A stretch of DNA of 64,000 bases from Deltaproteobacteria bacterium (GCA_038133845.1 JAYPUA010000007.1:7042-71041), one strand, 5' to 3'; shown: positions 1 to 45,111, numbered from the stretch's first letter. Notes: a model not told the origin generated them from the sequence alone. Numbers and translations are program-made.

Positions 1-261
1 CAGGAGCAGAGCATCTGCTACGAGATGATCCGGATGGCGTGGGCGTCCAACGCCTGTCTGGCGATCGCGCCGCTGCAGGACCTCCTCGGGTGCGACTCGG
101 AGGCCCGGATGAACACTCCGGGAACCGTCGGGGGGAGCAACTGGAGATGGCGCTTGCGGGAAGGGGAAGTTGCGGGGGTCCAGGGCGACTGGCTGAAGCA
201 CATCACCCGAATCTACGGTCGGGCCGAAGTTCCGGAGCAGCTTCCGGAAACCATCGAGTGA
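1..261 (+). CDS. malQ: 4-alpha-glucanotransferase (amylomaltase), C-terminal fragment running in from the window edge
   Basis: Frame 1 reads from base 1 to the stop at 259-261. The translation (...MIRMAWASNACLAIAPLQDLLGCDSEARMNTPGTVGGSNWRWRL...) matches the conserved C-terminus of MalQ-family glucanotransferases. Confidence 0.6.
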   Translation, partial: QEQSICYEMIRMAWASNACLAIAPLQDLLGCDSEARMNTPGTVGGSNWRWRLREGEVAGVQGDWLKHITRIYGRAEVPEQLPETIE

Positions 262-267
262 GCAGCC

Positions 268-9250: not shown

Positions 9251-9253
9251 CGT

Positions 9254-28083: not shown

Positions 28084-28115
28084 ATTCTCTCTACCTCGAA
28101 ACCAACATCGACCTC

Positions 28116-28736
28116 ATGCGAAAACCTGTCAAGATTGGGATCGGAGGACCGGTCGGCTCGGGCAAAACGGCCCTGCTGGACCGGCTCTGCAAGGCCATGC
28201 GGGATCAGTATCAGCTGGCCGTGGTGACGAACGACATCTTCACCCGCGAAGACATGGAGTTCCTGATCCGCAGCCAGGCCCTCCCGGAAGAGCGGATTCG
28301 AGGGGTGGAGACCGGAGGGTGCCCGCACACGGCGATCCGCGAGGACGCCTCCTTGAACTTCGAGGCGATCGAGAACCTGGTTGCAGATTTTCCCCAGCTG
28401 GACCTGGTGTTTGTGGAAAGCGGTGGCGACAACCTGGCCGCAAGCTTCAGCCCGGAATTGGTAGACGCCTCGATCTATGTCATTGACGTCTCGGGAGGAG
28501 ACAAGGTCCCGCGCAAGGGCGGTCCGGGAGTGACCCGCTCCGACCTGCTGGTGATCAACAAGATCGACCTCGCTCCGCAGGTCGGAGCCAGTCTTGAGGT
28601 GATGGACCGAGACGCCCGCAAGATGCGAGGAGAGCGCCCGTTCATCTTCAGCAATCTCAAGTCCGGAGAGGGGCTTGAAGTCATCATCCGCTGGATTCAG
28701 ACTCAGCTCCTCTTTGAAGAGGCTCCCGCCGGGTGA
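28116..28736 (+). CDS. ureG: Urease accessory GTPase UreG
   Basis: P-loop GGPVGSGKT, VTNDIFTxED, GGCPH metal-binding CPH motif, NKIDL. 206 aa. Confidence 0.85.
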
Positions 28737-29578
28737 GCGCGTTTTCTCCGGAGACGGTGGGGCGACAGGCTCGTTTGGAGCTGGTCTTCAAGCGCCAGGG
28801 GTCCCGGACTATCCTGGAGCGAGCCCACGTGGAGTCTCCTCTGAAGGTCACCCGCCCTTACTGGCCGGATGAGTCTGGACAAGCCCACCTGATCTTGATG
28901 AGCCCTGCCCCTGGAATTTTCGGAGGGGATGAGTGGGACCTGCAGGTTTCCGTGAAATCCGGGGCCTCGGCTCACATCACACCGCAAGGGGCGCTTCGCG
29001 TCCACCCCGACGTTCAGGCACAGACCGCACGGCAGAGGGTACACCTCAGGGTTGAGTCCGGGGGCACGCTCTTTTGGGAAATGGAGCCGGTGATCCCGTT
29101 TCGTGGCTCAAGCCTCCAACAGACCATTCATCTTGAACTGCAGGACGGGGCTCGGCTGTTTTTTTGGGACGGGTTCTGTGCCGGGCGGGTGCAATCCGGT
29201 GAGCGCTGGGAGTTTGCCCGACTGGAGCAGGATCTGCGGCTGGAGCGTGACGGCCAGCTGCTGCTGCTCGACCGCTTCCTCCTCGAGCCCCAGTCCCGTG
29301 AGGTGCCGCTTCATGACATGAACGAGTGCTTCACGGCGCTCTTGCATCCAGCCTCTTCCCTGAGCCAGCTGGATCCGGAAGGCCTCAGTCCCCGGCTTCA
29401 GTCTGCCGCATCCCGGTGGGGACTTGATGAACCAGCTCCGGGGCTGTTCCTGCTTCGAGGGCTGGTGCAGGAGGGCGTGACCCGTCGCCGAGACCAGGCG
29501 CAGTGGCGTGAGTTTCTCATTGACCAATGGGCCAACCCTCTGTCGACCCCAACTGCTTCAGGGGCCTCACAGAATTGA
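28733..29578 (+). CDS. ureD: Urease accessory protein UreD/UreH
   Basis: GTG start overlapping the ureG stop (GTGA). UreD-family pattern ([35 protein letters not shown]). Confidence 0.75.
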
Positions 29579-29648
29579 TCCGGATTTGAACTGGATTGTT
29601 TTCGTGTAAGAAATTATACCTGAGGGTCAAGCATCTTAGAGGTCCTGA

Positions 29649-30704
29649 ATGCCCGACATACTCCACTCCTTTGAAGACTACCTCCGGCAACCGCTGGAAG
29701 ACCGAATCCCGAACTACAACCGAGAGGGGCGGCTCTACCACGTGATGGTCGCCCAGCAGTTCAGCGAGCAGCTGCTGGAGGAGCTTTTTGATGCTGCGGA
29801 TCTGGTCAAGAGCCTGACTCGACGTCCCAACGGGATCGACTACCTGAAATCCCTGCTACGGCACCGTCGGGCGATGCTGTATTTCACTCAGCCCTCGACC
29901 CGGACCTTCCTCTCGTTTTTGACAGCGTGCCAGATGATCGGCGTGGATACGGGAGAGGTGCGGGATGCTGCACTGTCCTCGGAATACAAGGGGGAGAGCC
30001 AGGAGGACGGGGTCCGAGTCTTCAGCAGCTACTTTGACGCGATCGTGATGCGCGACCCGAAGCCCGGGTTTTGTGAGTACATGGCCTACTTGTTGGACCG
30101 GACGGGGCGGAGCGTTCCCATTCTCAACGGAGGGAGCGGGAAAGATCAGCATCCAACCCAAGCGCTGCTGGATCTGTACACCATGCACCGCTCCTTCCAA
30201 GAGCGTGGAGGGATTCGGGGAAAGCGGTATGCGTTTGTTGGGGACCTCCTCCGGGGAAGAGCCGTGCGCTCGGCCGTGTACCTGCTCAGTCAGTTTCAGA
30301 ACATCGAACTCTTCTTTGTGGCTCCCGAAGCATTCCAGATTGCTCCGGATCTGGAACAGCACCTCCGTGAGCGGAGTATCCCGGTTCACAAGTGCGACCA
30401 GATCCATCAGGTGCTCCCGGAGGTGGATTGTGTGTACATGACCCGCGTTCAGGATGAGTACGACCTCTCGGGAGAGTCTCAACTGATCGACCCTCGAAGC
30501 TACAGCCTGAACCGAGAGAACATCCGGATGATGCGTCCGGATGCGATCATTCTCCATCCGCTTCCACGCCGTGACGAGATTCATCCGGAGGTGGACTCCG
30601 ACCCGCGTGCGATGTATTGGCGCCAGTTGCGAAACGGTGTCTACATTCGTGCTGCCTTGATGCTGTACGTCTTCGGACGTTCGCACAAGCTGGCAGAATA
30701 CTGA
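29649..30704 (+). CDS. pyrB: Aspartate carbamoyltransferase catalytic chain (PyrB-like) with an N-terminal extension
   Basis: STRTF (variant of STRTR), MRDP, HPTQALLD, MTRVQ, and a C-terminal LHPLPRRDEI...NGVYIRAALM that closely parallels E. coli PyrB. Confidence 0.8.
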   Translation: MPDILHSFEDYLRQPLEDRIPNYNREGRLYHVMVAQQFSEQLLEELFDAADLVKSLTRRPNGIDYLKSLLRHRRAMLYFTQPSTRTFLSFLTACQMIGVDTGEVRDAALSSEYKGESQEDGVRVFSSYFDAIVMRDPKPGFCEYMAYLLDRTGRSVPILNGGSGKDQHPTQALLDLYTMHRSFQERGGIRGKRYAFVGDLLRGRAVRSAVYLLSQFQNIELFFVAPEAFQIAPDLEQHLRERSIPVHKCDQIHQVLPEVDCVYMTRVQDEYDLSGESQLIDPRSYSLNRENIRMMRPDAIILHPLPRRDEIHPEVDSDPRAMYWRQLRNGVYIRAALMLYVFGRSHKLAEY

Positions 30705-30736: not shown

Positions 30737-32236
30737 ATGAAGCCCCCTCTTTCCACTCCTGCTGCCCTCGTTCTCGTCTACGGACGTCCTCCCTTGGTCT
30801 TTGCTGGGATGTTGCTGGCCCTCTCTGTGATGATTCGCCCCAGCCCAGGAGTCTACACTGCAGGGGTGATGTGCTTGTTCATCTCCATGAGCTTTGATCT
30901 GGTCGATGGTTGGTTCTCTGCACGATTTCGTCCCCAGGCCAAGTTGGCACATCTTGCAGACCGGATCATGGACAAGGCGGTGTACTCGATTGTCTTTCCT
31001 CTGGTAGCCGTGGGGATGATGTGGCGCTATCAGCACCTCCCGGAAGGATCCAACGAGCGTCTGGAACTGCTGCATGTCCTGCTGGTTCTGGTGCTGGCCA
31101 TCACCGTGCTGATGCGGGACAACCTGGCGCACTTCCTGAGAAACTTTGCGCTTCGCAAAGGGGAGGAGGAGGAGATGAAGGAGGTGACTCGGCTGCGTAC
31201 TGTGGTGGCTGCTCCGGTGGGAGCGATTCTCTACGCCTACGCCTTCTACTTCCCCAGCTTTCCGGAAGACTCCACATACCAGTGGCTCGAGTCGTTGGGG
31301 CAGATGCCCACGAATCAGCTCATCTACCTGGAGGTGCTGTTCCTGATCATCAACTTTGGCTCCATTGCCGGATACATGCGCAAGTACGGAACCGCATGCT
31401 TGGATGATCTCTGCCTGGGAGACGTGGTGCTGCGCCGTCGGATTCTGGCGATCTTCCCCAACGCGCTGACCGTGATGAACGCGATGATGGGGCTGCTGGC
31501 GGTCTTCTTTGCCAGCCAGTCCCGGATGCACGAAGCCTTTCTCCTGCTCATTGGTGCGGCGTTCTTTGACAAGCTGGACGGCGCTCTGGCCCGCAAGCTC
31601 GGGCTGACAACCCCCCTTCCTTCTGCAAAGCCCAAGAAGCATCACGTGACCTTTGGAGGGATTCTGGACGACATCTCTGACGGAGTGAGCTTCTGCATTG
31701 CTCCGGCGCTGATGTTCTACATGCTCCTTGACCAGATTTCGGATCCTGAGGTGCAGGCCTTGCCTTACGGCTGGGTGGCGCTGGCCTATGCAGTTCTGGG
31801 AATTGTTCGTTTGATCTACTTCACGCTCGACCGAGCCAGCATCCCTGGCTTCTTCAAGGGGTTTCCCACCCCGGCGGCCGCGCTGCTGGTTGCCGGACCG
31901 TTCATCATGCTCGGGCAGGCGGCTGCAGAGCAGTCGGACCTGACGCTCTTCTGGGCCCAGTTCTGCCTCTGGAACATGGTGCTCACAGCAATTCTGATGA
32001 ATCTTTACCCGGTTCGCTATCTGCACGTCGGTCGCCTGATGAGCCGCAACAAGTGGGTCGGTCGGGTCACCTTGCTGATTGTGCTGACCTTTGTCTTCAC
32101 TCCCTACTTTGGCTATGCCGGGTTTGGCTACCTGATGCTCTATGCGCTCTCCCCCCTTTACACCTGGCGCATCAGCCCGGAAGTGGCGGCCCGGGAGGAA
32201 AGCAACGCTCGATCTTCGGAAAGGCTGAGCGCATGA
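30737..32236 (+). CDS. Polytopic membrane protein with two CDP-alcohol phosphatidyltransferase-like regions
   Basis: First region [10 protein letters not shown]...DRIMD is degenerate. Second region [12 protein letters not shown]...[10 protein letters not shown] matches the CDP-OH-PT signature with an insertion. Many TM helices. The antisense 534 aa ORF is rejected. Confidence 0.7.
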
Positions 32237-33270
32237 GCGAAGCATACGAAGATTCCGAGGAGCGTCTGGTCACCCCGGAGGAGCAGCCGGAGGAGCAGTA
32301 TGACCTCTCACTGCGCCCGGAGCGTCTGCGGGACTACATCGGCCAGTCCGAGGTCAAGGACAACCTCAAGGTCTTCATTGAGGCAGCCAAAAAGCGTCGG
32401 CAGCCGCTGGACCATGTTCTGCTGAGCGGACCTCCCGGGTTGGGAAAAACCACTCTGGCGAACATCTTCGCCCGGGAGATGGAGGCTCAGATTCGCTCCA
32501 CTTCCGGGCCGGTGATCGAGCGTCAGGGGGACCTGGCAGCGATTCTGACCAACCTGGAAGCCGGAACCATCCTGTTTATCGATGAGATCCACCGCATGAA
32601 CCGTGTGGTGGAAGAGGTCCTCTACAGCGCCATGGAGGATTTTACCCTGGACATCATCATCGGTCAGGGGCCAGCCGCCCGAACGGTCAAGCTCGACATC
32701 CCGCACTTCACCCTGGTAGGAGCCACGACCCGGGCCGGATTGCTCTCTTCTCCGCTCCGAGATCGCTTCGGAATTCAGTGCCGTTTGAATTACTATACTC
32801 CGGAAGAGCTTCAGGTGATCATCCTCCGCTCGGCCGCCATTCTGGAGATCGAAATTGTGGAAGAGGCCGCCATGGAGCTGGCCCGGCGTTCCCGGGGAAC
32901 TCCCCGAATTGCAAACCGGATGCTCCGGCGATGCCGTGACTTTGCCGACCTGGAGACCTCTGGGGTCATCACGCAATCGCTGGTGAACAGCAGCCTGGCT
33001 CGGCTGGGTGTGGACCTGGAGGGGCTGGACAACATGGATCGACACATCCTGATGACCATCATTGAAAAATTCAGCGGAGGCCCGGTGGGTTTGGGAACCC
33101 TGGCCGCGGCCGTCTCGGAGGAGAAAGACACGCTGGAGGATGTCTATGAGCCCTACCTGATGCTGCAGGGCTTCCTGCAACGTACCCCACGCGGACGCAC
33201 CGTCACTCAGCGAGCCTATACCCACTTGGGCCTGTCGGAACAGGGGACTCCGCAGATTCCGCTGTTCTGA
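32233..33270 (+). CDS. ruvB: Holliday junction branch-migration ATPase RuvB
   Basis: [12 protein letters not shown], Walker [10 protein letters not shown], Walker B FIDEIHR, sensor and arginine-finger regions. ATGA overlap with the upstream gene. Confidence 0.92.
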
Positions 33271-33300
33271 TCTTCTGAAAAACTTCCCCCTTCGAGGTCC

Positions 33301-34008
33301 ATGCGACTTTCCCTGCTGATGGAGTCTCAGCCTGATGACGTGACCTGTGGGCCGACTAGCCTGCATGCCGTCTACCGCTTCCTGGGAGACCCCATTTCCT
33401 TGCCCTCTCTGATTCAGCGCATCAATCAGCTTGAAGACGGAGGGACCTTGGCGGTGCTTCTGGGGATCGATGCGCTGCGGCAAGGGTATCAGGCGACTTT
33501 GCACTCCTTCAACCTCCAGCTCTTTGATCCAAGCTGGTCGATCCTCTCTGCCAGTGAACTGGCTGAGAAGCTCAAGCTGCAGCTGCACTTCAAGAAAGGC
33601 AAGAAGTTTACCTTGGCCACGGAGGCGTACCGGGAGTTTGTCCTCAGTGGAGGACAGCTTCGGCTGGAGCCCTTGAGCCGAGGACTTCTCCAGAAGTACC
33701 TCTCCCGGAAGCTCCCGATCCTGACGGGGCTCAGTGCGACCTATCTCTACCAGTCAAAACGCGAGTACACCAACGCCCGGGATCAGTCTGTGTTCGACGA
33801 CTTGAGAGGGGAGCCGATGGGGCATTTTGTGGTGATCCACGGAATGGAGCAAAACACGGTCTTTGTGGCAGACCCCTACCACGCGAACCCCCTCTCTCAG
33901 GACAACTACTACGAGGTCGATGTGGAGCAACTGATGCAGGCCATCATGCTTGGTGTCATGACCTACGATGGCAACCTCTTGATTCTTTCCTCTTCCCCGG
34001 AGACCTGA
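33301..34008 (+). CDS. Papain-fold / peptidase C39-like (BtrH_N-like) cysteine peptidase or transferase domain protein
   Basis: Candidate catalytic Cys in DDVTCGPTSLHAV, His in GHFVVIHG followed by VFVADPYH (the C39 / papain-like C...H...D arrangement). 235 aa. Its stop overlaps the next gene's start (TGATG). Confidence 0.55.
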   Translation: MRLSLLMESQPDDVTCGPTSLHAVYRFLGDPISLPSLIQRINQLEDGGTLAVLLGIDALRQGYQATLHSFNLQLFDPSWSILSASELAEKLKLQLHFKKGKKFTLATEAYREFVLSGGQLRLEPLSRGLLQKYLSRKLPILTGLSATYLYQSKREYTNARDQSVFDDLRGEPMGHFVVIHGMEQNTVFVADPYHANPLSQDNYYEVDVEQLMQAIMLGVMTYDGNLLILSSSPET

Positions 34009-35486
34009 TGCGCAAACTGTTGGTCGTGGATCAACCCGACCATTTCAAACTTCCCATCGAAGGAGTGGGCGTGGTTTCGGCCAAGGCCTACCTGACCCAG
34101 CCCGAGTTCAGTCAGCTCCCCAACCTGCGAGTGTTCAACCTGTGCAACGACTACCGCTACCAGTCCAAGGGATACTACGTGTCGCTGCTGGCAGAGGCAA
34201 GGGGACACAACCCGATTCCCAGCGTGAAGAATCTGCAAGACCTGCAGGCTCCCACGCTGTTTCGTAGCGTTAGCGACGACCTCGACACGCTGGTGCAAAA
34301 GTCCTTGCGCAAGCTCAAATCGGAAGAGTTTACGCTGAGCATCTACTTCGGACGAAACCTCGCCAAGCAGTATGAGCGGCTCTGTATGGAGCTGCACCGC
34401 CTGTTCCCGATGCCCTTCCTCCGGGTTCGGTTCATCAAGCAGAAGAAGCGCCTGCACACGGACTCTGAAACCTGGACCTTGCAGCAGGTCAAGGCCATCG
34501 CGTTCCGGGACATCCCGGAGTCTCACCTGGACCTGGTCATGGAGGCGGCCCAACGCTACTTCGGGCGCAAGCGCTACCAGGCGGCCAAGCCCACTCAGTA
34601 TGAGTACGATCTGGCAATTCTGGTGAATCGAGAAGAAAAGGCGGCCCCTTCGGATGCGGAGGCGCTGGAGAAGTTTGCAGAGGCGGCCACACGCCTCAAA
34701 GCCAGCGTGACCTTCGTTGACCGAGACGACTTGCACCGGATTGCCGAGTTCGACGCCTTGCTGATTCGTGAAACCACCAACGTCAACCACCACACCTACC
34801 GCTTCGCCCGCCGTGCTCAGGCAGAGGGACTTGCGGTGATTGACGACCCGGACTCCATCCTCCGTTGCACCAACAAGGTCTACCTGGCCGAGTTGCTCCA
34901 GCAGGGAAAGGTTCCGATTCCCAAGGGGATGGTGGTCCATTCGGAAAATCGTCAGACCGTCGGGGCCATTCTTGGATTTCCCTGTGTCCTCAAGCTCCCG
35001 GACTCTTCCTTCTCGCAAGGTGTGATCAAGGTTCGCGACGAGGCCGAACTGAAGGTTCACCTGCAGAAGATGTTCGCTCAGTCGGAGCTGGTTCTGGCGC
35101 AGGAGTACATGCCCACGGATTTCGATTGGCGGATCGGGGTGCTTGATGGGAAGCCGCTGTTTGCCTGCAAGTACTTCATGGCTCGCGGGCATTGGCAGAT
35201 CTACAACTGGGGGAGCCAGGATTCTGATGGACAGAGCGGGGAGTTCGAGACCATTGCTGTGGAGGATGCTCCAGACTATGTGGTCCGGACCGCGCTCAAG
35301 GCTGCTCGCCTGATTGGAAATGGGCTCTATGGCGTGGACCTGAAGGAGGTCCGAGGCAAGGCCTATGTCGTGGAAGTGAACGACAACCCGAACATCGACC
35401 ACCGCGTGGAGGATCTGATACTTGGAGACGAGATCTACCGCCGGGTTCTGAGCCACCTGTTTCAACAGATTGAGCAAAAATCATGA
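34008..35486 (+). CDS. RimK-type ATP-grasp ligase with a roughly 200 aa N-terminal RLAN-like domain
   Basis: C-terminal 290 aa has ATP-grasp motifs (FPCVLKLPDSSFSQGV, GLYGVDLKEVRGKAYVVEVNDNP). A long conserved-looking N-terminal extension is consistent with the RimK-like ATP-grasp N-terminal domain architecture. Confidence 0.8.
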   Translation: MRKLLVVDQPDHFKLPIEGVGVVSAKAYLTQPEFSQLPNLRVFNLCNDYRYQSKGYYVSLLAEARGHNPIPSVKNLQDLQAPTLFRSVSDDLDTLVQKSLRKLKSEEFTLSIYFGRNLAKQYERLCMELHRLFPMPFLRVRFIKQKKRLHTDSETWTLQQVKAIAFRDIPESHLDLVMEAAQRYFGRKRYQAAKPTQYEYDLAILVNREEKAAPSDAEALEKFAEAATRLKASVTFVDRDDLHRIAEFDALLIRETTNVNHHTYRFARRAQAEGLAVIDDPDSILRCTNKVYLAELLQQGKVPIPKGMVVHSENRQTVGAILGFPCVLKLPDSSFSQGVIKVRDEAELKVHLQKMFAQSELVLAQEYMPTDFDWRIGVLDGKPLFACKYFMARGHWQIYNWGSQDSDGQSGEFETIAVEDAPDYVVRTALKAARLIGNGLYGVDLKEVRGKAYVVEVNDNPNIDHRVEDLILGDEIYRRVLSHLFQQIEQKS

Positions 35487-36694
35487 GTGAGTATTCGCTG
35501 TTCGAGGTCTTTGGCGTGGAGATGGAGTTCATGGTGGTGGACCGGAACTCACTGAACGTCCGCCCGGTGGTGGATCGCCTGATTGAAGCCAAGCTCGGGG
35601 CTCCGGAATCGGATGTGGAGAACGGGGTGATCGACTGGTCGAACGAGCTGGTCAATCACGTGGTTGAACTGAAGTACCACGAACCCTACGCCTCCCTCGC
35701 CTTGGGAGCTGATTTTCATCAAAACGTTCAGGAGATCAATCAGCGTCTGGAGAGCCTGGACGCGATGCTCCTGCCTACCGGAGCCCATCCGTGGATGGAT
35801 CCAAACACAGAGACCCAGTTGTGGCCCCACGAACACAGCCAGATCTATCGCCTTTACAACCGCATCTTCGACTGCCGCGGGCACGGCTGGTCCAACCTCC
35901 AGTCGACTCACCTGAACCTGCCGTTCTCCGGAGACGAGGAGTTTGGCAAGCTGCACGCGGCGATTCGGGTCATCCTGCCGCTCCTGCCGGCGCTTTCCGC
36001 ATCCACGCCCTTTCTAGATGGACGCGCCACCGGAGTTCTGGACAGTCGATTGGATGTATACCGAACCAACCAAAAGCGCTTTCCGGTAATCACCGGGCTG
36101 GTGGTTCCAGAGCCGGTCTTTACCAAGGCTGACTATCATCGTCAGATCTTTGACCCGATCCGGGAGGTGATTGCCCCATACGATGAGGAGCGCATCCTTG
36201 ATCAGCACTTCCTCAACTCCCGAGGAGCGATTGCCCGTTTTGACCGGGGAGCGATCGAGATCCGGGTGCTGGACCTGCAGGAGTGCCCACAGGTAGACCT
36301 CGCGATCCTGGAAGCAACGGTCCGGGTTCTACGGAAGCTGGTGGCTCAGGACGACCTGATGGAGCGTATCCGGGCCTTCCCTACGGCACGGCTGGCGGAC
36401 CTGCTCCTACGCGTGATCGAGTCCGGGCGTCAGGCGAGTGTGGAGTGGCCAGAGCTGAACGAGGTGCTTGGCGTCGAAGCCTCCGCGACCACTGTCGGGG
36501 CGCTTTGGGAGGGAGCCCTGCGCGACGAGCCCTTTTCTCCGGAGGTGAGCTCCTGCCTGAGTCGGCTACAGGAACACGGATCGCTCTCAGAGCGAATTCT
36601 GCGCAGGCTTCCTCCAGATCCGCCGCGTGAGGCCCTGGTTGAGGTCTACCGCGAACTCGCAGCCTGCTTGCAACGAAACGAGATGCTGTCATGA
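35483..36694 (+). CDS. GCS2 / YbdK-family carboxylate-amine ligase (glutamate-cysteine ligase family 2)
   Basis: MEFMVVDRNS... N-terminus and overall pattern parallel E. coli YbdK (GIELEMQVV...). 403 aa. ATGA overlaps on both sides. Confidence 0.8.
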   Translation: MSEYSLFEVFGVEMEFMVVDRNSLNVRPVVDRLIEAKLGAPESDVENGVIDWSNELVNHVVELKYHEPYASLALGADFHQNVQEINQRLESLDAMLLPTGAHPWMDPNTETQLWPHEHSQIYRLYNRIFDCRGHGWSNLQSTHLNLPFSGDEEFGKLHAAIRVILPLLPALSASTPFLDGRATGVLDSRLDVYRTNQKRFPVITGLVVPEPVFTKADYHRQIFDPIREVIAPYDEERILDQHFLNSRGAIARFDRGAIEIRVLDLQECPQVDLAILEATVRVLRKLVAQDDLMERIRAFPTARLADLLLRVIESGRQASVEWPELNEVLGVEASATTVGALWEGALRDEPFSPEVSSCLSRLQEHGSLSERILRRLPPDPPREALVEVYRELAACLQRNEMLS

Positions 36695-39600
36695 ACCCAA
36701 TCCTCCTGGCAACGGAGAACTACCCCTTTCTCGCGGAATTTCGCCTGCTGGAAGATGCAGAAGACCGGGAGCAGCACCTTGATCGAATGCGCGTCTTGCT
36801 CCGGGAAAATCAGTCTCAGGAGGACGTGAGGGATGTGATTGAACACCTGGCTTTGAGAGAGCAGGTGTTTGCCCGGGTGGTTGCCGAGTACCACCGGGAG
36901 GAGCGTGAGGCTGCGATTCAGGCCAATCTCTCGGTGAAGAACTCCTTCCACATCCTGGCCCGCAACACGCACCTGCTCGATGCCATCCTGGCCATGGCGT
37001 TTGAGTACAGCCTGGAAGACCTTCCGGCCATCCGGGAAAACCTGGTGGAGCAGCTCCGCAAGGAGATCGACTACAAGCACCGGATGCTTCCGGAGAAGCG
37101 TGAGAAGTGCGAGATCCTGAAGCAGGAACTAGGGCAGTACAGCAAGCCCAGCACCACAGAGATGCGGCAACTGCAGAAGTACTACCAGCGCATCTACGAC
37201 GATCAGATGAAGGAGGTGAGCGTCCTGGAGGCTCGCCTTGAGGAGCTGCGGGAATCCTTGCCGCAGCTGGAAAAATGTGAGCTGAGCCGAGACTTTCTGT
37301 TGGGGCATATGGTGGTCTTTGCACGAGGAGGGTACGGACGCGCCGAGCTGAGCTTCGCTTCGGATCGTGACCTCGGGTACTGTGTAGACACACAGTCGCT
37401 CAACGCGGGTGAAACGGAAACCTGTCGCCAGCTGATCATGCGTATGGAGTACCTGCTCCGGGAAGCTGGAGTTCAGACTGCACATCAGTACTTTGAGATT
37501 GATGAAGACCTCTCCCGCTTCAGCGAACCCAACTCCGTCCACACCATCCCCTCGATTCTGGAGAGCCGGGTGCTTCTGGGAAGTCAGTCGCTATCGGAGG
37601 CCCTCAAGCGCCGCTTCTTCCACATCCTGCCTTACGAACCCTATGTCCTGAACAAGCTGGAGGAGTATCAGAACAGCCACCAGCCCACGCTCAACGAGAT
37701 GGACATCAAGGAGGACTTTGGCGGGTTGCGCACGCTGCAGGTCCCCCTGTGGATTGCGGCGGCGACCTATGGCGTCTTTCCTAGTCAGACCGCCGACCTG
37801 CTGGCCTTGATGATCCAGAAGCGCATCCTGTCTCCCCGGCAAGGCTACAAGCTCTGCCAAGCGCTGGAGTTTCTCTACGACCTGCGCAACTTCAGCGGCG
37901 CGGCACACCACTACTACGACGAGGAAGCCAAGGCCAGCGGGTGCGTGGACCGCAACCTGGAATCGAATGTGATCAACGACAGCCTGGAGCGCCTGTACCT
38001 GCTCAAGCGTCGGCGCTTCCGGAACGTGGACGAGTTCGATCGCTACCGCCTGCAAATGGTGGACAGCATCCGTGCGCTCTCCAGGATGATGCTCCGCAAG
38101 TTGATGGACCGAACCGTGGTCCGGACGTTCTCCGAGTTTCAGCTAGTGGTGCACCTGCGCAAGCGTCGCATTGTGGAGATTCACGCGCTCGAGGGGCTGC
38201 CTCAGGTTCCCTTGGCGCTGATTTTCAGCAACCCGATCGTGCTGTTGGAGCTGTTCATCTACATCGGCCAGTCCGGATACGACCTCTCGGTGGAACTCAA
38301 GGACGAGCTGGCCGAGTTGATCCCGACCCTCACTCAGGAGCGCATTCAGGTCTGCCGAGGGGTGCTCTATCAGAAGTTCACGGAGCTGATGCTGACTCCG
38401 AACACGGCCAGCGCCCTGCGCGTCATGTTCGAGATCAGTGACCCAATCAGCGAATCCAATCTGCCGGACACGCTGATCGGACGCTACATCCCGGAGTGCA
38501 ATCAGATGCGCTTTCTGTTGCGCAACCTGTCCTACCACCAGCACCCGGTCTGCATTCACTCCCTGAACGCGGTGGAGCGCTGCCAGGAAGAGCTGAAGCT
38601 TTTGCGTCAGAACTATCCGGAGCTGCACCACTACCTGAAGCCACAGCATGTCCTGGCGCTCAAGTGGGGCATGCTGTTCCATGACGTGGGCAAGATCGAC
38701 CCCACCTCCCGACATCAGATCTCCGGAACCCTGATTGCCGTTCAGGCACTGGAGCGTCTGGGATACCAGGACCCGGAACTCTTCCGGCTGGTCTCGTTGC
38801 TGATCGCGCACCACATGACCGTGGTTCAGCTGAGCAAGACCTCGGCCTACTTCGACCAGGCTCTGCAGAACTTCTTCGAAGTCGCCGACCGCAGCCTGGT
38901 GAACGTGATTCTGCTTTTCCTGGTCAACATCTCGGACTACAGCGCAGTGAGCGAGTCGAACGCCAGAGACACGCGGCACCTGCGCAACTTCTTTGAAGAG
39001 ACGTACCGGGTGTTCTCGGAGATGCGCTCCAGCGGAGAGGACTCCTTGGACTTCATCCACAGCTACCTGGACAACAAGAAGAGCGACCTGGAGTTCGACA
39101 CCCGCATCGACCTCTTGATCAAACGCAGTCTGCACAACGACTTGGACGAGGAATTGTTCGGACCCTTGGCGGAAACCAGCTCGAAGGAACGGGACCGATT
39201 GCGTCACTCCGAAGAGGAACTCCGGAGGCTGTGGCGGGTGCTCAAGGTGGGCTCTCTCGACTCCAAGGGCATTGATCAGCACACCGACCAGATGATCCGG
39301 ATGATCCGGCAGACCCTGAACAACAGCTCGATCATGGCCCTCACGGAGTCCTTCAACTTCATGATCAACTGGTTCTTCACGGCCTTCCCCAACCGGTTCC
39401 TGCTTAGTGCACCTCCGGATGTTCTGGCACAGAACCTCTCCATCTTTCAGCACATTGATCGCCCAGTGCTGGCCAACGTGCTGACGAATGCTCGGGGATG
39501 GGTGACGGGGCTGCTGATTTATGTCCGTGGGCAGGAGGGCATCCACAGCCGGGTGGCCTATGTGTTGAACAAGCTCAACCTGAACGTGGACTCCGCAAAG

Positions 39601-40095
39601 ATGAACCGCATCTGCTTCCACGAAGGCAACGAGGGCTACTGCTACTTCTTTGAGGTCTCCCGCCAAGGCAACGGGGAGATGATCTTTCCCCGAGACATTG
39701 AATCCGCGATTTTACGCGACTCCCCCCCTCCTCTGCGGATTCAGCCCAGCGAGTTCCGCTACAACACCCGTGTGCTGGTGGAGTATCTGGATGATGATGA
39801 AAAAGGATATCTTGTTTCAGAGCAAGAGCCAAAGACGGAGGGGGCTCCCGGACACTTCTCTCGGCGGCCCGCTCACTACCTGCGGGTCAAGATCACGGTG
39901 GAGGACGCTCCGATGGTGTACTTCAAGATGGCCCACGCCTTTGAGGCGGTCAACGTGCCGATCCAGCAGTCGCTGATTACCACCACCGGACATCAGGTGA
40001 TGGACATGTTCTACATCAACCCGGAAGATCTGGAGCGCCTGCAGCAGTCGGATTTTGAGGAGATCCTGCGCAACACCCTCTCAGTCAGCGGTTGA
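36691..40095 (+). CDS. GlnD-family nucleotidyltransferase / HD phosphohydrolase / ACT-domain protein (1134 aa), uridylyltransferase-like
   Basis: Pol-beta NTase motif FARGGYGRAELSFASDRDLGY. HD motif LFHDVGKID. C-terminal ACT-like region (VYFKMAHAFEAVNVP). The N-terminal extension has a coiled-coil insertion relative to E. coli GlnD. Confidence 0.7.
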   Translation: MNPILLATENYPFLAEFRLLEDAEDREQHLDRMRVLLRENQSQEDVRDVIEHLALREQVFARVVAEYHREEREAAIQANLSVKNSFHILARNTHLLDAILAMAFEYSLEDLPAIRENLVEQLRKEIDYKHRMLPEKREKCEILKQELGQYSKPSTTEMRQLQKYYQRIYDDQMKEVSVLEARLEELRESLPQLEKCELSRDFLLGHMVVFARGGYGRAELSFASDRDLGYCVDTQSLNAGETETCRQLIMRMEYLLREAGVQTAHQYFEIDEDLSRFSEPNSVHTIPSILESRVLLGSQSLSEALKRRFFHILPYEPYVLNKLEEYQNSHQPTLNEMDIKEDFGGLRTLQVPLWIAAATYGVFPSQTADLLALMIQKRILSPRQGYKLCQALEFLYDLRNFSGAAHHYYDEEAKASGCVDRNLESNVINDSLERLYLLKRRRFRNVDEFDRYRLQMVDSIRALSRMMLRKLMDRTVVRTFSEFQLVVHLRKRRIVEIHALEGLPQVPLALIFSNPIVLLELFIYIGQSGYDLSVELKDELAELIPTLTQERIQVCRGVLYQKFTELMLTPNTASALRVMFEISDPISESNLPDTLIGRYIPECNQMRFLLRNLSYHQHPVCIHSLNAVERCQEELKLLRQNYPELHHYLKPQHVLALKWGMLFHDVGKIDPTSRHQISGTLIAVQALERLGYQDPELFRLVSLLIAHHMTVVQLSKTSAYFDQALQNFFEVADRSLVNVILLFLVNISDYSAVSESNARDTRHLRNFFEETYRVFSEMRSSGEDSLDFIHSYLDNKKSDLEFDTRIDLLIKRSLHNDLDEELFGPLAETSSKERDRLRHSEEELRRLWRVLKVGSLDSKGIDQHTDQMIRMIRQTLNNSSIMALTESFNFMINWFFTAFPNRFLLSAPPDVLAQNLSIFQHIDRPVLANVLTNARGWVTGLLIYVRGQEGIHSRVAYVLNKLNLNVDSAKMNRICFHEGNEGYCYFFEVSRQGNGEMIFPRDIESAILRDSPPPLRIQPSEFRYNTRVLVEYLDDDEKGYLVSEQEPKTEGAPGHFSRRPAHYLRVKITVEDAPMVYFKMAHAFEAVNVPIQQSLITTTGHQVMDMFYINPEDLERLQQSDFEEILRNTLSVSG

Positions 40096-40151
40096 GTTGA
40101 AGGTGCATCCAAAAATTGACTCGTCATTTCGTCCGGTTTCTGACTGAATGA

Positions 40152-40171
40152 AAAGTTGTTTTTTCAACTTT
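40152..40171. promoter_or_regulatory. Perfect 7 bp inverted repeat with a T6 loop upstream of the DAHP synthase gene
   Basis: AAAGTTG-tttttt-CAACTTT, lying about 65 nt upstream of the 40237 start codon. Confidence 0.25.
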
Positions 40172-40236
40172 CAAGGCCAGCCAGCACCAGAGGAGGGAGG
40201 CGGCCTCGAAGGGGCCTCTCAAGAGTCACAAAAGTC

Positions 40237-41304
40237 ATGATTGAAGACCTGACCAAGCCTCATCCGCTGATTGATGATGTCCGGATCAAGAACCTCAGAC
40301 CACTGATTCCCCCGGCAATTTTGCTGGAGGAGATGCCGGCTACGGATGAGATTGCCAACACGGTCAGCAGGCATCGCCAAGAGATTCAGGGAATTCTCCG
40401 TGGGCAGGATCCTCGCCTGCTGGCAGTGGTCGGGCCGTGCTCGGTTCATGACGTTGAGGCGGCCAAGGAGTATGCCAATCGCCTGAAGGGGGTCGCCGAT
40501 GAGCTGCAAGACCGCCTGAAGGTCGTGATGCGGGTCTACTTTGAGAAGCCAAGAACCACGGTTGGCTGGAAGGGACTGATCAACGACCCAAACCTGGATG
40601 GGAGCTTCAAGATCAACCAGGGCTTGCACGTGGCGCGTGGACTGCTCATTGAGATTGCCAAGTCAGGGTTGCCTGCAGGCTGCGAGTTTCTGGACACCAT
40701 TACCCCGCAGTTCATTGCGGATCTGGTCAGCTGGGGGGCGATTGGAGCCCGGACCACGGAGAGTCAGGTGCACCGCGAACTGGCGAGCGGGCTCTCCTGC
40801 TCCGTGGGTTTCAAGAATGGAACCGACGGCCGGGTGAACATCGCCATCGACGCGATCCGGGCCGCCTCCAACGGACACCACTTCCTCTCTGTGACCAAGC
40901 AGGGCTTGGTCGCCATTGTGGAGACCGCCGGAAATCCGGACTGCCACGTGATCCTGCGAGGAGCAGATTCGGGCCCAAACTACGATCCGGAATCGGTCAC
41001 TCAGGTCGTGGATGTGCTCCGGAAGGCGGGGTTGCCGGAAAAGCTGATGGTCGACTGCTCCCACGGCAACAGCCGCAAGGACTACCGAAAGCAGCGGGAG
41101 GTTGTCGCCAGCATCGCCGAACAGCGCGCTTTAGGCAACAGCCCGATCTTTGGAGTGATGATCGAGAGCCACCTCGTCGAAGGGCAGCAGAAGTGTACCA
41201 ACCCGGAAGACCTGCTCTATGGCCAATCCATCACGGATGCCTGCGTTGGCTGGGAAGAAACCGTCGAACTCCTCCACACGCTGGCCTCTGTGGAAAAAAA
41301 GTAA
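40237..41304 (+). CDS. 3-deoxy-7-phosphoheptulonate (DAHP) synthase, class I (AroG/F/H family)
   Basis: Near-collinear with E. coli AroG: MRVYFEKPRTTVGWKGLINDP, GAIGARTTESQVHRELASGLSC, KNGTDG. Confidence 0.9.
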   Translation: MIEDLTKPHPLIDDVRIKNLRPLIPPAILLEEMPATDEIANTVSRHRQEIQGILRGQDPRLLAVVGPCSVHDVEAAKEYANRLKGVADELQDRLKVVMRVYFEKPRTTVGWKGLINDPNLDGSFKINQGLHVARGLLIEIAKSGLPAGCEFLDTITPQFIADLVSWGAIGARTTESQVHRELASGLSCSVGFKNGTDGRVNIAIDAIRAASNGHHFLSVTKQGLVAIVETAGNPDCHVILRGADSGPNYDPESVTQVVDVLRKAGLPEKLMVDCSHGNSRKDYRKQREVVASIAEQRALGNSPIFGVMIESHLVEGQQKCTNPEDLLYGQSITDACVGWEETVELLHTLASVEKK

Positions 41305-41432
41305 CCCCCCAAAGAGAACTCCCCAAGGTACCCCGCACCAAATGAATTGAACCCGATGCGCATTCCCCCGGAATGAGACTCTTTGTGGACTCAAACTAGT
41401 ATACTACCATTATTCAAAGGCACCGTTTGCAG

Positions 41433-42782
41433 ATGAACAGAACGAACTCAGGAGTGCTGACCTTGTTGCTGCTGGCTTTGCTGAGTCTCCTCGGAGGCTC
41501 GCTGCAGGCTCAGGATCAGGGAGACATGCAGCAGAGGGTGGACGAACTGTCAGAGACGCCGACTCGGGAAATCCTCAAGGCCGCTCAGGAGCGCGAAGGA
41601 GACTTTCAGGCCCGTCTGGAGTCTTCCGGGCCTGAGGAGATTCTGGTGTACACCACCGCTCCGCCGGTCACCAGACAGTCTACGGGGAGGCTGGTCCTGA
41701 ACATCAGCTCGTTTGCGTCGCTCTCCCGGGTCCGGGTCAACCAGGAGTTGGTCCTTCTGGATGCCGGGACGTTCGACACGGCCCTGGAGTTTGCGTACAC
41801 CCTGGCTCCGGGAGAGAACCTGTTCAACACCCGGGTCGAGTCTGAATCCGGCGTGCTGGAAAAGACCTTCAAGATCTTTTTGGAGACCGATGAGGTGAAG
41901 TATCAGGATCCGGCCAAGGCGCGCAAGTCGAGCTTCTCCTTCATCACGATTGCCGGGGTCGCCCGGGATGACAACATCAACAGTGCCTCAAGCGATCCCA
42001 AGGCGGCGACCAAGAGCAGCCTGACTCTGGTGGCTGTGAAGCAAATTGCCACTGGCTACACCTCTGCTGTGGTCCTGACCGGGATTGTCAATGCCGATGA
42101 CCAGTGGAATTCGGAGTATAGCTCTCGGGAGATCCTGTTCCGGCAGTTCAGCGCAGACTGGAACGACTCCGCGCTTGCCTGGGGAGACCTGACGGTGGGG
42201 CTGGGCTACAACGAGGTGGGACTGAGTGACCTCTCCCGGGCTTCCGGCCTCAGAGACTCCTGGAATGGGAGCTACAAGCAGGGAGGCAGCGAGACCTTCG
42301 CCGGGTTGCAGTTGAAGGTTCCTTTTGAAGGGGAGTTGCAGTGGACCTCTTCCCTGCGCCTGGGAATCAAAACCAACCCGGGAGTTGCCGAGAAGGATCG
42401 GACCAACAAGCTGGGGCAGAAGCTGGACTTTCAGTACCTGGGGCAGAAATGGAACTGGGCCGGAGAGTACTCGACCACAGACACTCCGCTGGACAGCACT
42501 GACTCCCGGACATTCAGCACGACCCTGAAGGCAAGCCTGCCGATCAAGCCGCTGAAGTTCGGATTCCAGCTGGGATATTCGGATACTCAGAACAAGGCAG
42601 AGGATGCGACGGGGATACGCAAGAAAAGCTCGAAAGCCTCCGGAACATTTTCTGTGAGCTATCCCTTGAAGCCCACCGTGATTTTGGACTTTTCGCACAA
42701 GTACGAGGTCCAGCAGACCAACGTTTCCGGGTCTGACTACCGCAAGAACCTGGATACCCTGAACCTGACTCTGGTGTTTTGA
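41433..42782 (+). CDS. Outer-membrane beta-barrel protein, hypothetical
   Basis: Signal peptide LTLLLLALLSLLGGSLQA, amphipathic strand pattern, C-terminal ...LNLTLVF. The track ORF begins at a TTG at 41427, and the ATG at 41433 is preferred. Confidence 0.6.
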   Translation: MNRTNSGVLTLLLLALLSLLGGSLQAQDQGDMQQRVDELSETPTREILKAAQEREGDFQARLESSGPEEILVYTTAPPVTRQSTGRLVLNISSFASLSRVRVNQELVLLDAGTFDTALEFAYTLAPGENLFNTRVESESGVLEKTFKIFLETDEVKYQDPAKARKSSFSFITIAGVARDDNINSASSDPKAATKSSLTLVAVKQIATGYTSAVVLTGIVNADDQWNSEYSSREILFRQFSADWNDSALAWGDLTVGLGYNEVGLSDLSRASGLRDSWNGSYKQGGSETFAGLQLKVPFEGELQWTSSLRLGIKTNPGVAEKDRTNKLGQKLDFQYLGQKWNWAGEYSTTDTPLDSTDSRTFSTTLKASLPIKPLKFGFQLGYSDTQNKAEDATGIRKKSSKASGTFSVSYPLKPTVILDFSHKYEVQQTNVSGSDYRKNLDTLNLTLVF

Positions 42783-42784
42783 AC

Positions 42785-43756
42785 ATGCGATACCTGCTCT
42801 CTGTCCTGCTCCTGCTGACGATCGGCTCTTCCGTGTTTGCCCAGGAGTCTTTTGTCCGGTTGCTCTCCGGGCGCCTCAAGCTTCAGTTGGGTCCCCAAGC
42901 CCGCTTCCTGACGCATCAGGATGCGCAAAATCCGCTTGAGGTCAAGCTGCTGGTGGGAGAGCGGATCCAAACGGGCAAGGACACCCAGGCCGAAGTCTCC
43001 TTGAGAGGCGGCGAAGAGGTGATTCAGCTTCGCTCCGGATCCCTGTTCACCGTCAACGACCTGAGCGAGAAACAGACGAAGCTCTCGATGCCGATTGGGA
43101 AGGCCAAGTTCAAGGTGGACCCTAAGCGAAAGCTCAAGCGAGGGTTTCAGGTCCGGACGACCACGGCCATCATTGGAGTTCGAGGGACGGAGTTTGTCAT
43201 GGGCGCCGGGGAGGGGCAGACCAGCATGCTGACCCTCTCGGGTGCCGTCGAGATGGCCTCTGTGGAGGCTCCGGCGGTCAAGGTCCGGGTCAACATCGGG
43301 CAGGCCAGTAAGCTGGTGGTCGGCAAGGCTCCAACTCCTCCGGTTTCCGTTCCTCCGGAGCTGCGGACTTCCATCGCAGAGGGCGACTCCACCGAGTCCT
43401 TCGAGGTCGTCTCCTTCCCTCCGGCTCAAGATATTGAGGAGGCCGCTGCAGAACAAGAGCAGGCCCAGGACGCCGAAGAAGAACCGAAACAAGACGCCGA
43501 AGAAGAGGACAACCCGGAGGAAGAACCCACTGATGAGGCTCCAGCGGAAGACGACGCGCTTCCCGCAGAAGAGGAGCCTGCCATGGAGACCCCAGAGCTG
43601 GAGGCCCCGGAGGAAATCGAGATCGACCTTGGAGAGCTGGACGTCCTGAATGACCTGCTTGAAGAGGTAAACGATACGGTGAATGATGCGGTCGAAGAGG
43701 CTGCTGAAGAAGCTGCCGAGACGGAGCGCACCATAAAAATCAACATCAACGAGTAA
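42785..43756 (+). CDS. Secreted FecR-domain protein with a highly acidic C-terminal tail
   Basis: Signal MRYLLSVLLLLTIGSSVFAQ. FecR-type core (TTAIIGVRGTEF). The C-terminal 100 aa is E/D/P-rich. Starts 2 nt after the upstream OMP stop. Confidence 0.65.
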   Translation: MRYLLSVLLLLTIGSSVFAQESFVRLLSGRLKLQLGPQARFLTHQDAQNPLEVKLLVGERIQTGKDTQAEVSLRGGEEVIQLRSGSLFTVNDLSEKQTKLSMPIGKAKFKVDPKRKLKRGFQVRTTTAIIGVRGTEFVMGAGEGQTSMLTLSGAVEMASVEAPAVKVRVNIGQASKLVVGKAPTPPVSVPPELRTSIAEGDSTESFEVVSFPPAQDIEEAAAEQEQAQDAEEEPKQDAEEEDNPEEEPTDEAPAEDDALPAEEEPAMETPELEAPEEIEIDLGELDVLNDLLEEVNDTVNDAVEEAAEEAAETERTIKININE

Positions 43757-43761
43757 CCACG

Positions 43762-45111
43762 ATGTCTCGAAACTACCTGCTCTTGCTGATGTTCCTTGCC
43801 GGATCGCTGGGGATTTTGAACTCCTGCGGCGACATCCCGGATGAATCTCCAAATTCGGTCAAGGTCTCGCTGGGAGTGAGCGACCATGCCCACCGGTCCA
43901 GAAACCTGGGGCGTTGGCCCTTCCGCTCAAACGCAGCCCTAGAGCTTTCATCGACTGACCAAGGGGTGGCCTACCTGTTTCAGACCTCTGCCTTTGACCT
44001 CACTCAGGAAAACGTCTCAGACCCAAGAGAGCTTGCCTACTCTTACGGAGACTACACCAGAACAAGCGGTCTCTCCGGAAGTGCTGAATTGACAGCTCCC
44101 ATAGGCGAGGAGGTCTTTGTTGCAGTGGGCTTCTCCGATGCTCAGGGTCAAGGGATTGGCCACTTCTTCACTCAGCCCTTTACCGTCTCCAGCAGCCAAA
44201 CATCGATTACAACCCAGATCGATCAGGTATTTTTGGACAACACCACGTCAGGAGGAGACAACTCCACAACGGACAACACGACTTCCAATCCTCCACCAAG
44301 TGGGAGCCCTCCGGCCGGTGTTTTCTATACGTACGACGATGGAATTAGCCTGAACGTTGCGACCTGGGACAACCAGAGCGCGAACTCCATCAATTTGTAC
44401 TCACCGGAAGCCCTGGATAACTCCAGCGTCGCCGTTGGAGCGTCGTGTAGTGCAAGTGATTCGATTGTGCTCCATGACAACGCGACAAATCAGTGCATCT
44501 CGTTGTCGCTGGCGTCTTCCGGGTACCCCATGGACAACGCAAGCAACGGGATGTACTTCAACTACTCCACAGCCACTGCTCTTCAGGCTGGGCAGGATTA
44601 TGCGCTCCAGCTCTCCAGCAGTATCCTGTATGACAACGGGAGCGCAGCCTTCCCCAGCGGCAAGGAGATCGCCTTCCGCCTTGTCTTCAAACCTTATGCG
44701 CCTTGGCCTCCGACAGAAAGCATCTCCATTTCAGGATCACCGCCTTCAATGGTCAGTTTGGGAGGGAACAGCTGGGATAGCTACTCTCTGACAGAACTGT
44801 ACCCGAGTATCCAGGCTCAGAGCATCAACCCATCCACAGTGAACACCTCAGAGAGCACAACGTGCTCAGGCTCGCTTCAACTGTACGACAACGCGAGCAA
44901 CGCATGCATCGGGCTGACGCTGACAGGCACACACTATCCTGACGATTCTGGGTCATATTTGAACATCGATGCCTTCGCCAAGCAGTCACTGGTTCGAGGG
45001 AACGATTACGCCTTGATCTTCACGGATGCAATTCAGTATGACAACGGAAGCAGCGTCTTTCCTTCCGGAGCGACGGTGAACTTTCAGGCTGTGGAGTTTG
45101 TGGAGTATTGA
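43762..45111 (+). CDS. Lipoprotein with a tandem roughly 105 aa repeat
   Basis: Lipobox LGILNSC. Two internal repeats, each with a Cys pair and LYDNxSN / YDNGS motifs, at roughly aa 200-308 and 340-446. Confidence 0.6.
   Translation: MSRNYLLLLMFLAGSLGILNSCGDIPDESPNSVKVSLGVSDHAHRSRNLGRWPFRSNAALELSSTDQGVAYLFQTSAFDLTQENVSDPRELAYSYGDYTRTSGLSGSAELTAPIGEEVFVAVGFSDAQGQGIGHFFTQPFTVSSSQTSITTQIDQVFLDNTTSGGDNSTTDNTTSNPPPSGSPPAGVFYTYDDGISLNVATWDNQSANSINLYSPEALDNSSVAVGASCSASDSIVLHDNATNQCISLSLASSGYPMDNASNGMYFNYSTATALQAGQDYALQLSSSILYDNGSAAFPSGKEIAFRLVFKPYAPWPPTESISISGSPPSMVSLGGNSWDSYSLTELYPSIQAQSINPSTVNTSESTTCSGSLQLYDNASNACIGLTLTGTHYPDDSGSYLNIDAFAKQSLVRGNDYALIFTDAIQYDNGSSVFPSGATVNFQAVEFVEY

Follow-up and report, generated by a model that had tools for sequence, protein, structure and literature searches.

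A probable mosaic locus in SAR324: a three-gene amide-ligase cassette next to a resident, divergent GlnD homolog

The stretch of DNA considered here, 64,000 nucleotides (nt) from a genome labeled Deltaproteobacteria bacterium (GCA_038133845.1, JAYPUA010000007.1:7042-71041; "the window"), holds four tightly packed genes downstream of ruvB. In order, they encode a C39-like papain-fold peptidase, a RimK-type ATP-grasp ligase with an RLAN domain (RLAN-RimK), a GCS2-type carboxylate-amine ligase, and a large GlnD-like protein with nucleotidyltransferase (NTase), HD, and ACT domains (Table 1). We refer to the first three as the cassette. A preliminary description of this DNA saw all four as one candidate peptide-synthesis or protein-tagging module, starting from four co-directional open reading frames (ORFs) that overlap stop on start at all three junctions. 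That arrangement agrees exactly with the sequence in both its coordinates and its junctions, which are CTGATGCG, TCATGAGT, and TCATGAAC, one overlap of 1 nt and two of 4 nt. What are these four proteins, and are their genes found together elsewhere?

The first gene encodes a 235-amino-acid (aa) protein that scores above the Pfam gathering threshold for Peptidase_C39_2 (28.9 bits) and Peptidase_C39 (28.1 bits), in an alignment that covers just the His-containing C-terminal segment. The AlphaFold2 model has a mean predicted local distance difference test score (pLDDT) of 89.2, and Foldseek matches it to 3erv, PCAT1, LahT, ComA, PeiR, CtaG, and the phytochelatin-synthase-like Alr0975. Four residues, Q10, C16, H175, and D191, do not vary across 30 aligned homologs. 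Together, the model, the C39-like matches, and the invariant residues uphold the papain-like fold that had been assigned to this protein. The transpeptidase and transacylase folds among the matches leave open that the enzyme may transfer its substrate instead of purely hydrolyzing it. There are at least 5,815 homologs; the best non-self match is 62% identical, and those with names are from Bacteroidia and Rhodothermales.

The next two proteins are ligases, as proposed earlier. The 492-aa product of the second gene carries both expected Pfam domains above their cutoffs, RLAN (PF14401; 159.8 bits, cutoff 25; E value, 4.9e-47) and RimK (PF08443, residues 289-465; 37.7 bits, cutoff 21; E value, 2e-9). 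It is not RimK proper, scoring below the NCBIfam cutoff of the RimK family (TIGR00768, 69.4 versus 143.4 bits) and of the S6-Glu ligase model (NF007764, 18.7 versus 331). The best sequence relatives of its ATP-grasp domain in the PDB are the Pseudomonas and Escherichia coli RimK enzymes, and there are at least 8,000 RLAN-RimK homologs, the best non-self one 63% identical. The 403-aa product of the third gene matches Pfam GCS2 (PF04107; 74.6 bits; E value, 1.1e-20). It reaches 54.2 bits against YbdK (TIGR02050; cutoff, 176.4) and is far below the cutoffs of all equivalogs, so that, judged by these scores, it is a member of the GCS2 superfamily only, outside the YbdK and GshA equivalogs. In fact, none of the four window proteins reaches an NCBIfam equivalog. 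The catalytic residues of the enzymes are invariant and the structure models confident, and the enzymes look functional.

The fourth gene encodes an 1134-aa protein with Pfam scores of 29.5 bits for GlnD_UR_UTase and 17.1 bits for HD, the latter under the cutoff of 22. Against the canonical GlnD equivalog, TIGR01693, it scores 129.7 bits, short of the 519.4 required. Profile alignment with hhalign matches it to canonical GlnD with a probability of 100% (E value, 3.8e-45), pairing query columns 206-1118 with columns 103-899 of the 933-column template, from the NTase through both ACT domains. The AlphaFold2 model (pLDDT, 85.2) ends in two C-terminal beta-alpha-beta-beta-alpha-beta units, and its Foldseek neighbors are NTase-HD enzymes, GlnE, DrrA, and ACT proteins. 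Thus, the GlnD-like domain order described earlier stands, with two ACT-like domains in place of the single one reported. The reported insertion also exists, as a helical insertion in the AlphaFold2 model rather than a coiled coil, and that description should also include some 200 residues added at the N terminus, all of them helical.

Relatives of this protein form a family of about 85 clusters, 29 to 100% identical and about 1130 to 1160 aa long, and the named ones come from metagenome-assembled genomes (MAGs) of the SAR324 cluster or "Deltaproteobacteria." In a database search, the score drops from 433 to 82 bits between this family and canonical GlnD. All 20 family members compared share the key residues of the NTase motif, GGYGRAELSFASDRDL at residues 213-228. 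The window protein has an intact HD dyad, H664 and D665, while across the family the His is kept in 16 of 20 members and the Asp in 12 of 20. The dyad is degenerate in the more divergent members, where the NTase motif stays invariant, which suggests that part of the SAR324 GlnD-like family may have lost the removing activity. Relative to orthologs that have no cassette beside them, the conserved motifs of the window protein are unchanged.

Table 1. Positions of the genes, protein domains, and boundaries discussed (window coordinates unless a residue range or another locus is named)
Feature	Position	Strand	Basis
ruvB, upstream insertion boundary, last backbone gene before the slot	32233..33270	+	Pfam RuvB_N, AAA_lid_4, RuvB_C
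Spacer of 30 nt, ruvB stop to cassette gene 1	33271..33300	+	Sequence; compared with L013, L014, L010
Cassette gene 1, stand-alone C39-like papain-fold cysteine peptidase (235 aa)	33301..34008	+	Pfam, AlphaFold2, Foldseek, catalytic set
Cassette gene 2, RLAN (residues 25-179) plus RimK-type ATP-grasp (residues ~204-465) (492 aa)	34008..35486	+	Pfam
Cassette gene 3, GCS2/YbdK-type carboxylate-amine ligase, full length (403 aa)	35483..36694	+	Pfam GCS2
Resident SAR324-type GlnD homolog, outside the cassette (1134 aa)	36691..40095	+	Family search, hhalign, AlphaFold2, Foldseek
GlnD homolog, helical N-terminal extension	residues 1-200; 36691-37290	+	AlphaFold2 model, all-helical, confident
GlnD homolog, NTase	residues ~207-330	+	Model, hhalign
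GlnD homolog, GlnD_UR_UTase helical region	between NTase and HD	+	Pfam
GlnD homolog, HD	residues ~600-750	+	Model, hhalign
GlnD homolog, helical insertion between HD and ACT	residues ~755-920; 38953-39450	+	AlphaFold2 model
GlnD homolog, two ACT-like domains	residues 926-1009 and 1029-1131	+	Model, hhalign
STT3/PglB-like gene in the slot of other lineages	L017 7613-9922; L038 7761-9980; L042 3966-6185; L058 ~7588-9952		Pfam

Seen from the side of the cassette, the first three genes belong together. We surveyed 79 non-self metagenomic RLAN-RimK loci, counting each feature among the loci with enough flank. GCS2 lies downstream of RLAN-RimK in 54 of 60 loci and a C39-like peptidase upstream in 35 of 63; the gene order recurs, and the earlier view of peptidase, RLAN-RimK, and GCS2 as a conserved amide-ligase module is borne out. 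The usual fourth gene is an FGase amidohydrolase (PF05013), found downstream in 27 of 50 loci and absent from 23. The full order of C39-like peptidase, RLAN-RimK, GCS2, and FGase occurs on a Flammeovirgaceae/Cesiribacter-type contig (Cytophagales), in Pontibacter, and on two further contigs. The window has the RLAN-RimK fusion, GCS2 directly downstream on the same strand, and the C39-like gene directly upstream, and it has no FGase homolog or remnant detectable by tblastn with two FGase queries (best E value, 0.21). It therefore carries the FGase-less form of a very widespread family, for which Bacteroidota, Rhodothermota, and Fibrobacterota provide the best sampling, with RLAN-RimK plus GCS2 as the core, a C39-like peptidase as a frequent first gene, and FGase as a frequent fourth. 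The genes that follow other FGase-less cassettes are mutually unrelated (DctP, LamG, a type IX secretion system tail protein, DUF2254, and a glycosyltransferase). In all, the FGase-less cassette is a normal variant without an alternative fourth partner, and FGase is accessory, not defining.

A GlnD-like gene was found at none of the 48 RLAN-RimK loci with room for one, and canonical GlnD at none of 80. The four-gene arrangement occurs only in assemblies of the window's own organism, of which at least four independent ones carry it. Two possible hidden partners were considered and rejected. An FGase fused to the N terminus of the 1134-aa protein is at odds with the tblastn result and with the all-helical first 200 aa, and the large ORFs that follow GCS2 at loci L127 and L140, considered as divergent NTase partners, have no Pfam matches and are probably spurious high-GC ORFs. 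At one other locus, L122, a C39-like/RLAN-RimK pair has a glycosyltransferase gene after it in the place of GCS2, and two tandem PII genes (PF00543; 2509-2847 and 2989-3327) about 2.7 kb upstream. As a single case in 79 loci, this is probably a coincidence, and we do not take it as a link between RLAN cassettes and PII.

The view from the GlnD-like side is the same. Taking one genome per species, we examined 55 loci (L013 to L067) by tblastn with all window proteins, and none had C39, RLAN-RimK, GCS2, or FGase upstream of the GlnD-like gene. The four families thus occur together at none of 55 GlnD-like loci and none of 48 RLAN loci, an outcome that the preliminary description had itself named as a refutation, and the proposal that the GlnD-like protein is a module member that gates synthesis by nucleotidylylation is not supported; the usual fourth gene is FGase. 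What does recur is the backbone: OTCase, a CDP-OH transferase, RuvB, and the GlnD-like gene follow one another in the window's order at 22 of the 55 loci, with three more showing part of the order at a contig end. Public gene calls for one relative, P0134, place the GlnD-like gene after RuvB with nothing between. More distant family members sit in unrelated contexts. The 1134-aa gene is a vertically inherited, highly divergent SAR324 homolog of glnD whose ancestral site is directly downstream of ruvB.

One RLAN-RimK gene does lie near a distant member of the GlnD-like family, at L041 (8277-9776, minus strand; 49% identity), about 3 to 4.6 kb away and downstream. It is solo, on the opposite strand, and followed by a DeoC/LacD-family aldolase gene, and we rejected it as a cassette. 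No PII gene (glnB/glnK) or canonical glnD was found in the 64-kb window, nor was either found within 10 kb in the 55 related GlnD-like loci. Upstream in the window and co-directional, positions 27939-30704 hold a CobW/UreG-type GTPase gene and ureD, which overlap by 4 nt, and an ornithine/aspartate carbamoyltransferase gene, a loosely nitrogen-related neighborhood for the GlnD homolog.

The closest relatives, L013 and L014, make the boundaries of the cassette visible; these boundaries, like the gene-order statistics above, are direct observations. Their GlnD-like proteins are 82 and 81% identical to that of the window, their RuvB proteins are 91 and 89% identical, and no other gene stands between ruvB and the GlnD-like gene. 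Nucleotide identity of about 78% extends to the ruvB stop (33270-33272). Homology resumes over the GlnD-like gene, from 36715 by blastn and from 36691 by protein match and a shared CATGAAC, and nothing in L013 or L014 matches window positions 33273-36714. The native region between ruvB and the GlnD-like gene is about 110 to 245 nt in relatives, and the 30-nt spacer stands in its place. In four other SAR324 lineages, the same slot is filled by an STT3/PglB-like gene, which encodes a membrane protein homologous to oligosaccharyltransferases (about 740 to 770 aa; Pfam STT3-PglB_core and STT3); in L038 and L042, its stop and the start of the GlnD-like gene share 4 nt. The slot appears to be a recurrent insertion site with variable cargo. 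Synteny with L013 and L014 also stops at the end of the GlnD-like gene; the DAHP synthase gene that follows (40096-41304) is present only in the window, marking a second rearrangement breakpoint.

How, then, should the tight packing be read? The GCS2 protein aligns at its C terminus to the end of its homologs and is full length, and the TGA that ends its gene is part of the ATG-AAC with which the GlnD-like gene natively begins. Because cassette-free relatives share this CATGAAC start context (Met-Asn) and GCS2 is complete, the ATGA at this junction is explained by GCS2 ending in the TGA of a start codon context that was already there. Comparable overlaps occur between unrelated genes. The CDP-OH transferase gene and ruvB, a functionally unrelated pair in the same gene string, share an ATGA at 32233-32236. 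Further such overlaps exist elsewhere in the window, in a crude window-wide gene selection that picked some antisense ORFs; as evidence, we use only overlaps verified individually and those in public gene calls. The gene calls of canonical cassettes show a 4-nt overlap as well, there between the GCS2 stop and the FGase start. Since an STT3-like gene makes the same overlap elsewhere and the CDP-OH transferase/ruvB pair does so here, stop-on-start overlap is not specific to a module. Tight packing is a property of the gene string and the genome, not a signature of a four-gene unit. No promoter- or terminator-like signal between the genes, including the 30-nt spacer, rises above shuffled expectation, and we infer that the four genes are probably co-transcribed here, possibly within a longer string that starts upstream of ruvB. 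Such co-transcription follows from the insertion having occurred in a compact genome and is not evidence of shared function.

Altogether, we consider it likely that the block is a mosaic, in which an independent three-gene ligase cassette has been inserted beside a resident SAR324 GlnD homolog, and that the apparent four-gene system is an accident of gene order. The cassette would have come to lie between ruvB and the GlnD-like gene once this lineage had separated from its closest sampled relatives, replacing the native intergenic region in such a way that GCS2 came to terminate in the TGA of the ATG-AAC start. The cassette's affinities point outside SAR324. Its best non-self matches are 62 to 63% identical, versus 80 to 91% for the flanking genes; its nearest relatives, where named, belong to the FCB group (Bacteroidota, Rhodothermota, and Fibrobacterota); and in a rough neighbor-joining tree the window RLAN-RimK forms a long branch within the radiation of the FCB group. 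A protein database that includes the MAG proteins of L013 and L014 yielded no RLAN-RimK or C39-like protein with above 63% identity to those of the window, so these sister genomes, as sampled, appear to be without close cassette orthologs.

Several points weigh against this reading. The third-codon-position GC content (GC3) and relative synonymous codon usage (RSCU) of the cassette are indistinguishable from those of its flanks, which offers no compositional sign of transfer; because they match, the acquisition should not be very recent. Relocation of the cassette within the genome is possible, and its absence from other places in other SAR324 genomes is judged only from there being no protein-database match above 63%. 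The GlnD-like gene, having lost its native upstream region, now depends on upstream transcription, and this is some regulatory coupling in this genome. Finally, the chemistry of the cassette is entirely inferred, with no characterized member found.

The original proposal, in which the four genes are one system and a glutamyl peptide or tag is made or removed under the control of the GlnD-like NTase/HD/ACT protein, through nucleotidylylation that responds to a metabolite, now seems improbable. In its favor, the genes overlap closely and are probably transcribed together here, their arrangement is stable across at least four assemblies, and there is a precedent for a RimK operon with a protease and a signaling enzyme, RimABK (PMC4741518, PMC7343187). 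However, linkage is nil from both sides, the closest relatives carry the GlnD-like gene without the cassette, and an unrelated STT3-like gene forms the same 4-nt overlap in sister lineages. The GlnD-like family has also retained the complete architecture of canonical GlnD and has been inherited vertically among housekeeping genes. Could the linkage instead be old, and possibly functional, with the cassette ancestral at the slot and lost in all other sampled lineages? The match of codon usage and GC3 to the host would fit, as would the presence of some gene in the slot in several lineages. This history would nevertheless require many independent, precise losses across the 22 backbone-conserving lineages, L013 and L014 among them, for a cassette whose best homologs, just 62 to 63% identical, are FCB-group rather than SAR324 where named. 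Other lineages hold a different gene, the STT3-like one, in the slot. We regard an ancestral cassette as equally improbable.

It is also conceivable, at the far end of the scale, that the GlnD homolog substitutes for the missing FGase, its HD hydrolase (or its NTase) serving as the fourth enzyme of the cassette. The GlnD-like gene does occupy the usual FGase position, with the same 4-nt geometry as GCS2/FGase junctions, and the window has no FGase gene or remnant. A replacement is not needed, though, because FGase-less cassettes with unrelated downstream genes are common (the 23 of 50 loci above), and the GlnD-like motifs are no different from those of cassette-free orthologs. HD phosphohydrolases and FGase-type metallo-amidohydrolases perform different chemistry, which also counts against substitution, and we find this explanation very hard to credit. 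A milder version of linkage deserves a small chance, namely that the juxtaposition has been retained because it yields one nitrogen-responsive transcript or because the GlnD homolog has acquired an additional target, either a cassette protein or what the cassette makes. If this were true, the locus would be a nascent, lineage-specific link of glutamate-peptide ligation with nitrogen-status signaling.

Under the mosaic reading, the two parts would have separate functions. For the cassette, domain identities, catalytic residues, and folds are directly observed, and substrates and products are predicted. Its two ATP-dependent ligases would build a glutamate-containing amide or oligopeptide, which could be a small molecule or a C-terminal or side-chain protein tag. 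GCS2 would form one amide bond by way of an acyl phosphate; the RLAN domain would bind the acceptor, to which the RimK-type enzyme would attach L-Glu units in alpha linkage. The papain-fold enzyme might then trim, release, or transfer the product, like RimB or the phytochelatin-synthase-like transpeptidases, and FGase, where present, might deacylate or recycle it. By analogy with RimK and RimB of RimABK and with the chemistry of ATP-grasp and glutamine-synthetase-fold ligases, the cassette thus probably both produces and trims such a glutamate-containing compound. The GlnD homolog, for its part, would probably carry out reversible nucleotidylylation (NTase) and denucleotidylylation (HD) of a putative PII-type target in response to a signal sensed by its ACT domains. 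There is also a small chance, given its N-terminal extension, its helical insertion, and the degenerate HD dyad of divergent members, that the SAR324 family is not a classical PII uridylyltransferase.

Elsewhere in the window, at 41427-45111, two proteins of about 450 aa without a Pfam match flank a FecR-domain protein, all co-directional, and this trio is also present in the organism's other assemblies. An anti-phage defense assignment was considered as well and rejected, PADLOC giving only a weak, generic HD/Cas3 match.

The locus is foremost a warning: in a compact genome, a shared direction and overlapping stops and starts are not enough to establish a functional module, and comparative genomics shows the eye-catching fourth gene to be a bystander. 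Two broader points come with it: the C39-like/RLAN-RimK/GCS2 cassette, with or without FGase, is extremely widespread (thousands of clusters), computationally predicted, and experimentally uncharacterized, and the SAR324 phylum carries a strongly divergent GlnD homolog. Neither point is new to this locus, nor does the locus make either more testable.

How do the parts compare with known systems? Canonical GlnD, the PII uridylyltransferase/uridylyl-removing enzyme, has the same order of NTase, GlnD_UR_UTase, HD, ACT, and ACT as the 1134-aa protein, and the two also share the GGYGRxELxxxSDxD NTase motif, which does not vary, and an HD dyad, which the window protein has kept. However, identity between the two is only about 22 to 25%, and two parts of the window protein go unmatched when it is aligned to canonical GlnD by hhalign, the N-terminal extension of roughly 200 aa and some 100 aa of the helical insertion. 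The degenerate HD dyad of divergent SAR324 members is a further difference.

The peptidase shares its fold and its Gln/Cys/His/Asp arrangement with the C39 peptidase domains of ComA, PCAT1, and LahT and with their relatives 3erv, PeiR, CtaG, and Alr0975. Unlike the C39 domains that process bacteriocins, it is stand-alone, cytoplasmic-looking, and not fused to an ABC transporter, and it has an insertion of about 80 aa between its Cys and His segments. Its context also differs, with ligases, ruvB, and a GlnD-like gene in place of a double-glycine leader peptide; no precursor peptide gene was identified, in a search limited to ORF inspection.

For the cassette as a whole, the nearest match is a prediction. 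Iyer, Abhiman, Burroughs, and Aravind (2009; Mol Biosyst 5:1636) are said to have predicted neighborhoods of RLAN-RimK, GCS2, papain-like peptidase, and FGase by comparative genomics, and their work is reportedly the source of the Pfam RLAN family, PF14401. The window cassette has the same families in the same order as the predicted neighborhoods, with 45 to 63% identity to members from Bacteroidota, Rhodothermota, and Fibrobacterota. It differs in having no FGase and in its SAR324 host, where it sits inside a housekeeping string and overlaps a resident glnD homolog. Our literature search found no experimental study of the RLAN/GCS2/C39/FGase system.

The best characterized pair of an ATP-grasp enzyme and a peptidase is in the RimABK operon of Pseudomonas, in which RimK glutamylates the C terminus of RpsF, RimB is a polyglutamate-specific protease, and RimA is a cyclic di-GMP phosphodiesterase "trigger" (PMC4741518, PMC7343187, PMC10092738). 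RimABK resembles the cassette in that a RimK-type ATP-grasp enzyme is co-transcribed with a protease able, in principle, to trim the product, and among solved structures those of RimK are closest to the window ATP-grasp domain. In contrast to the cassette enzyme, RimK of RimABK has no RLAN domain and no GCS2 partner, and its protease is retropepsin-like where the window peptidase is papain-fold. The regulators differ as well: the EAL phosphodiesterase of RimABK is conserved in its operon, whereas the GlnD-like gene of the window is not a conserved partner of the cassette beside it.

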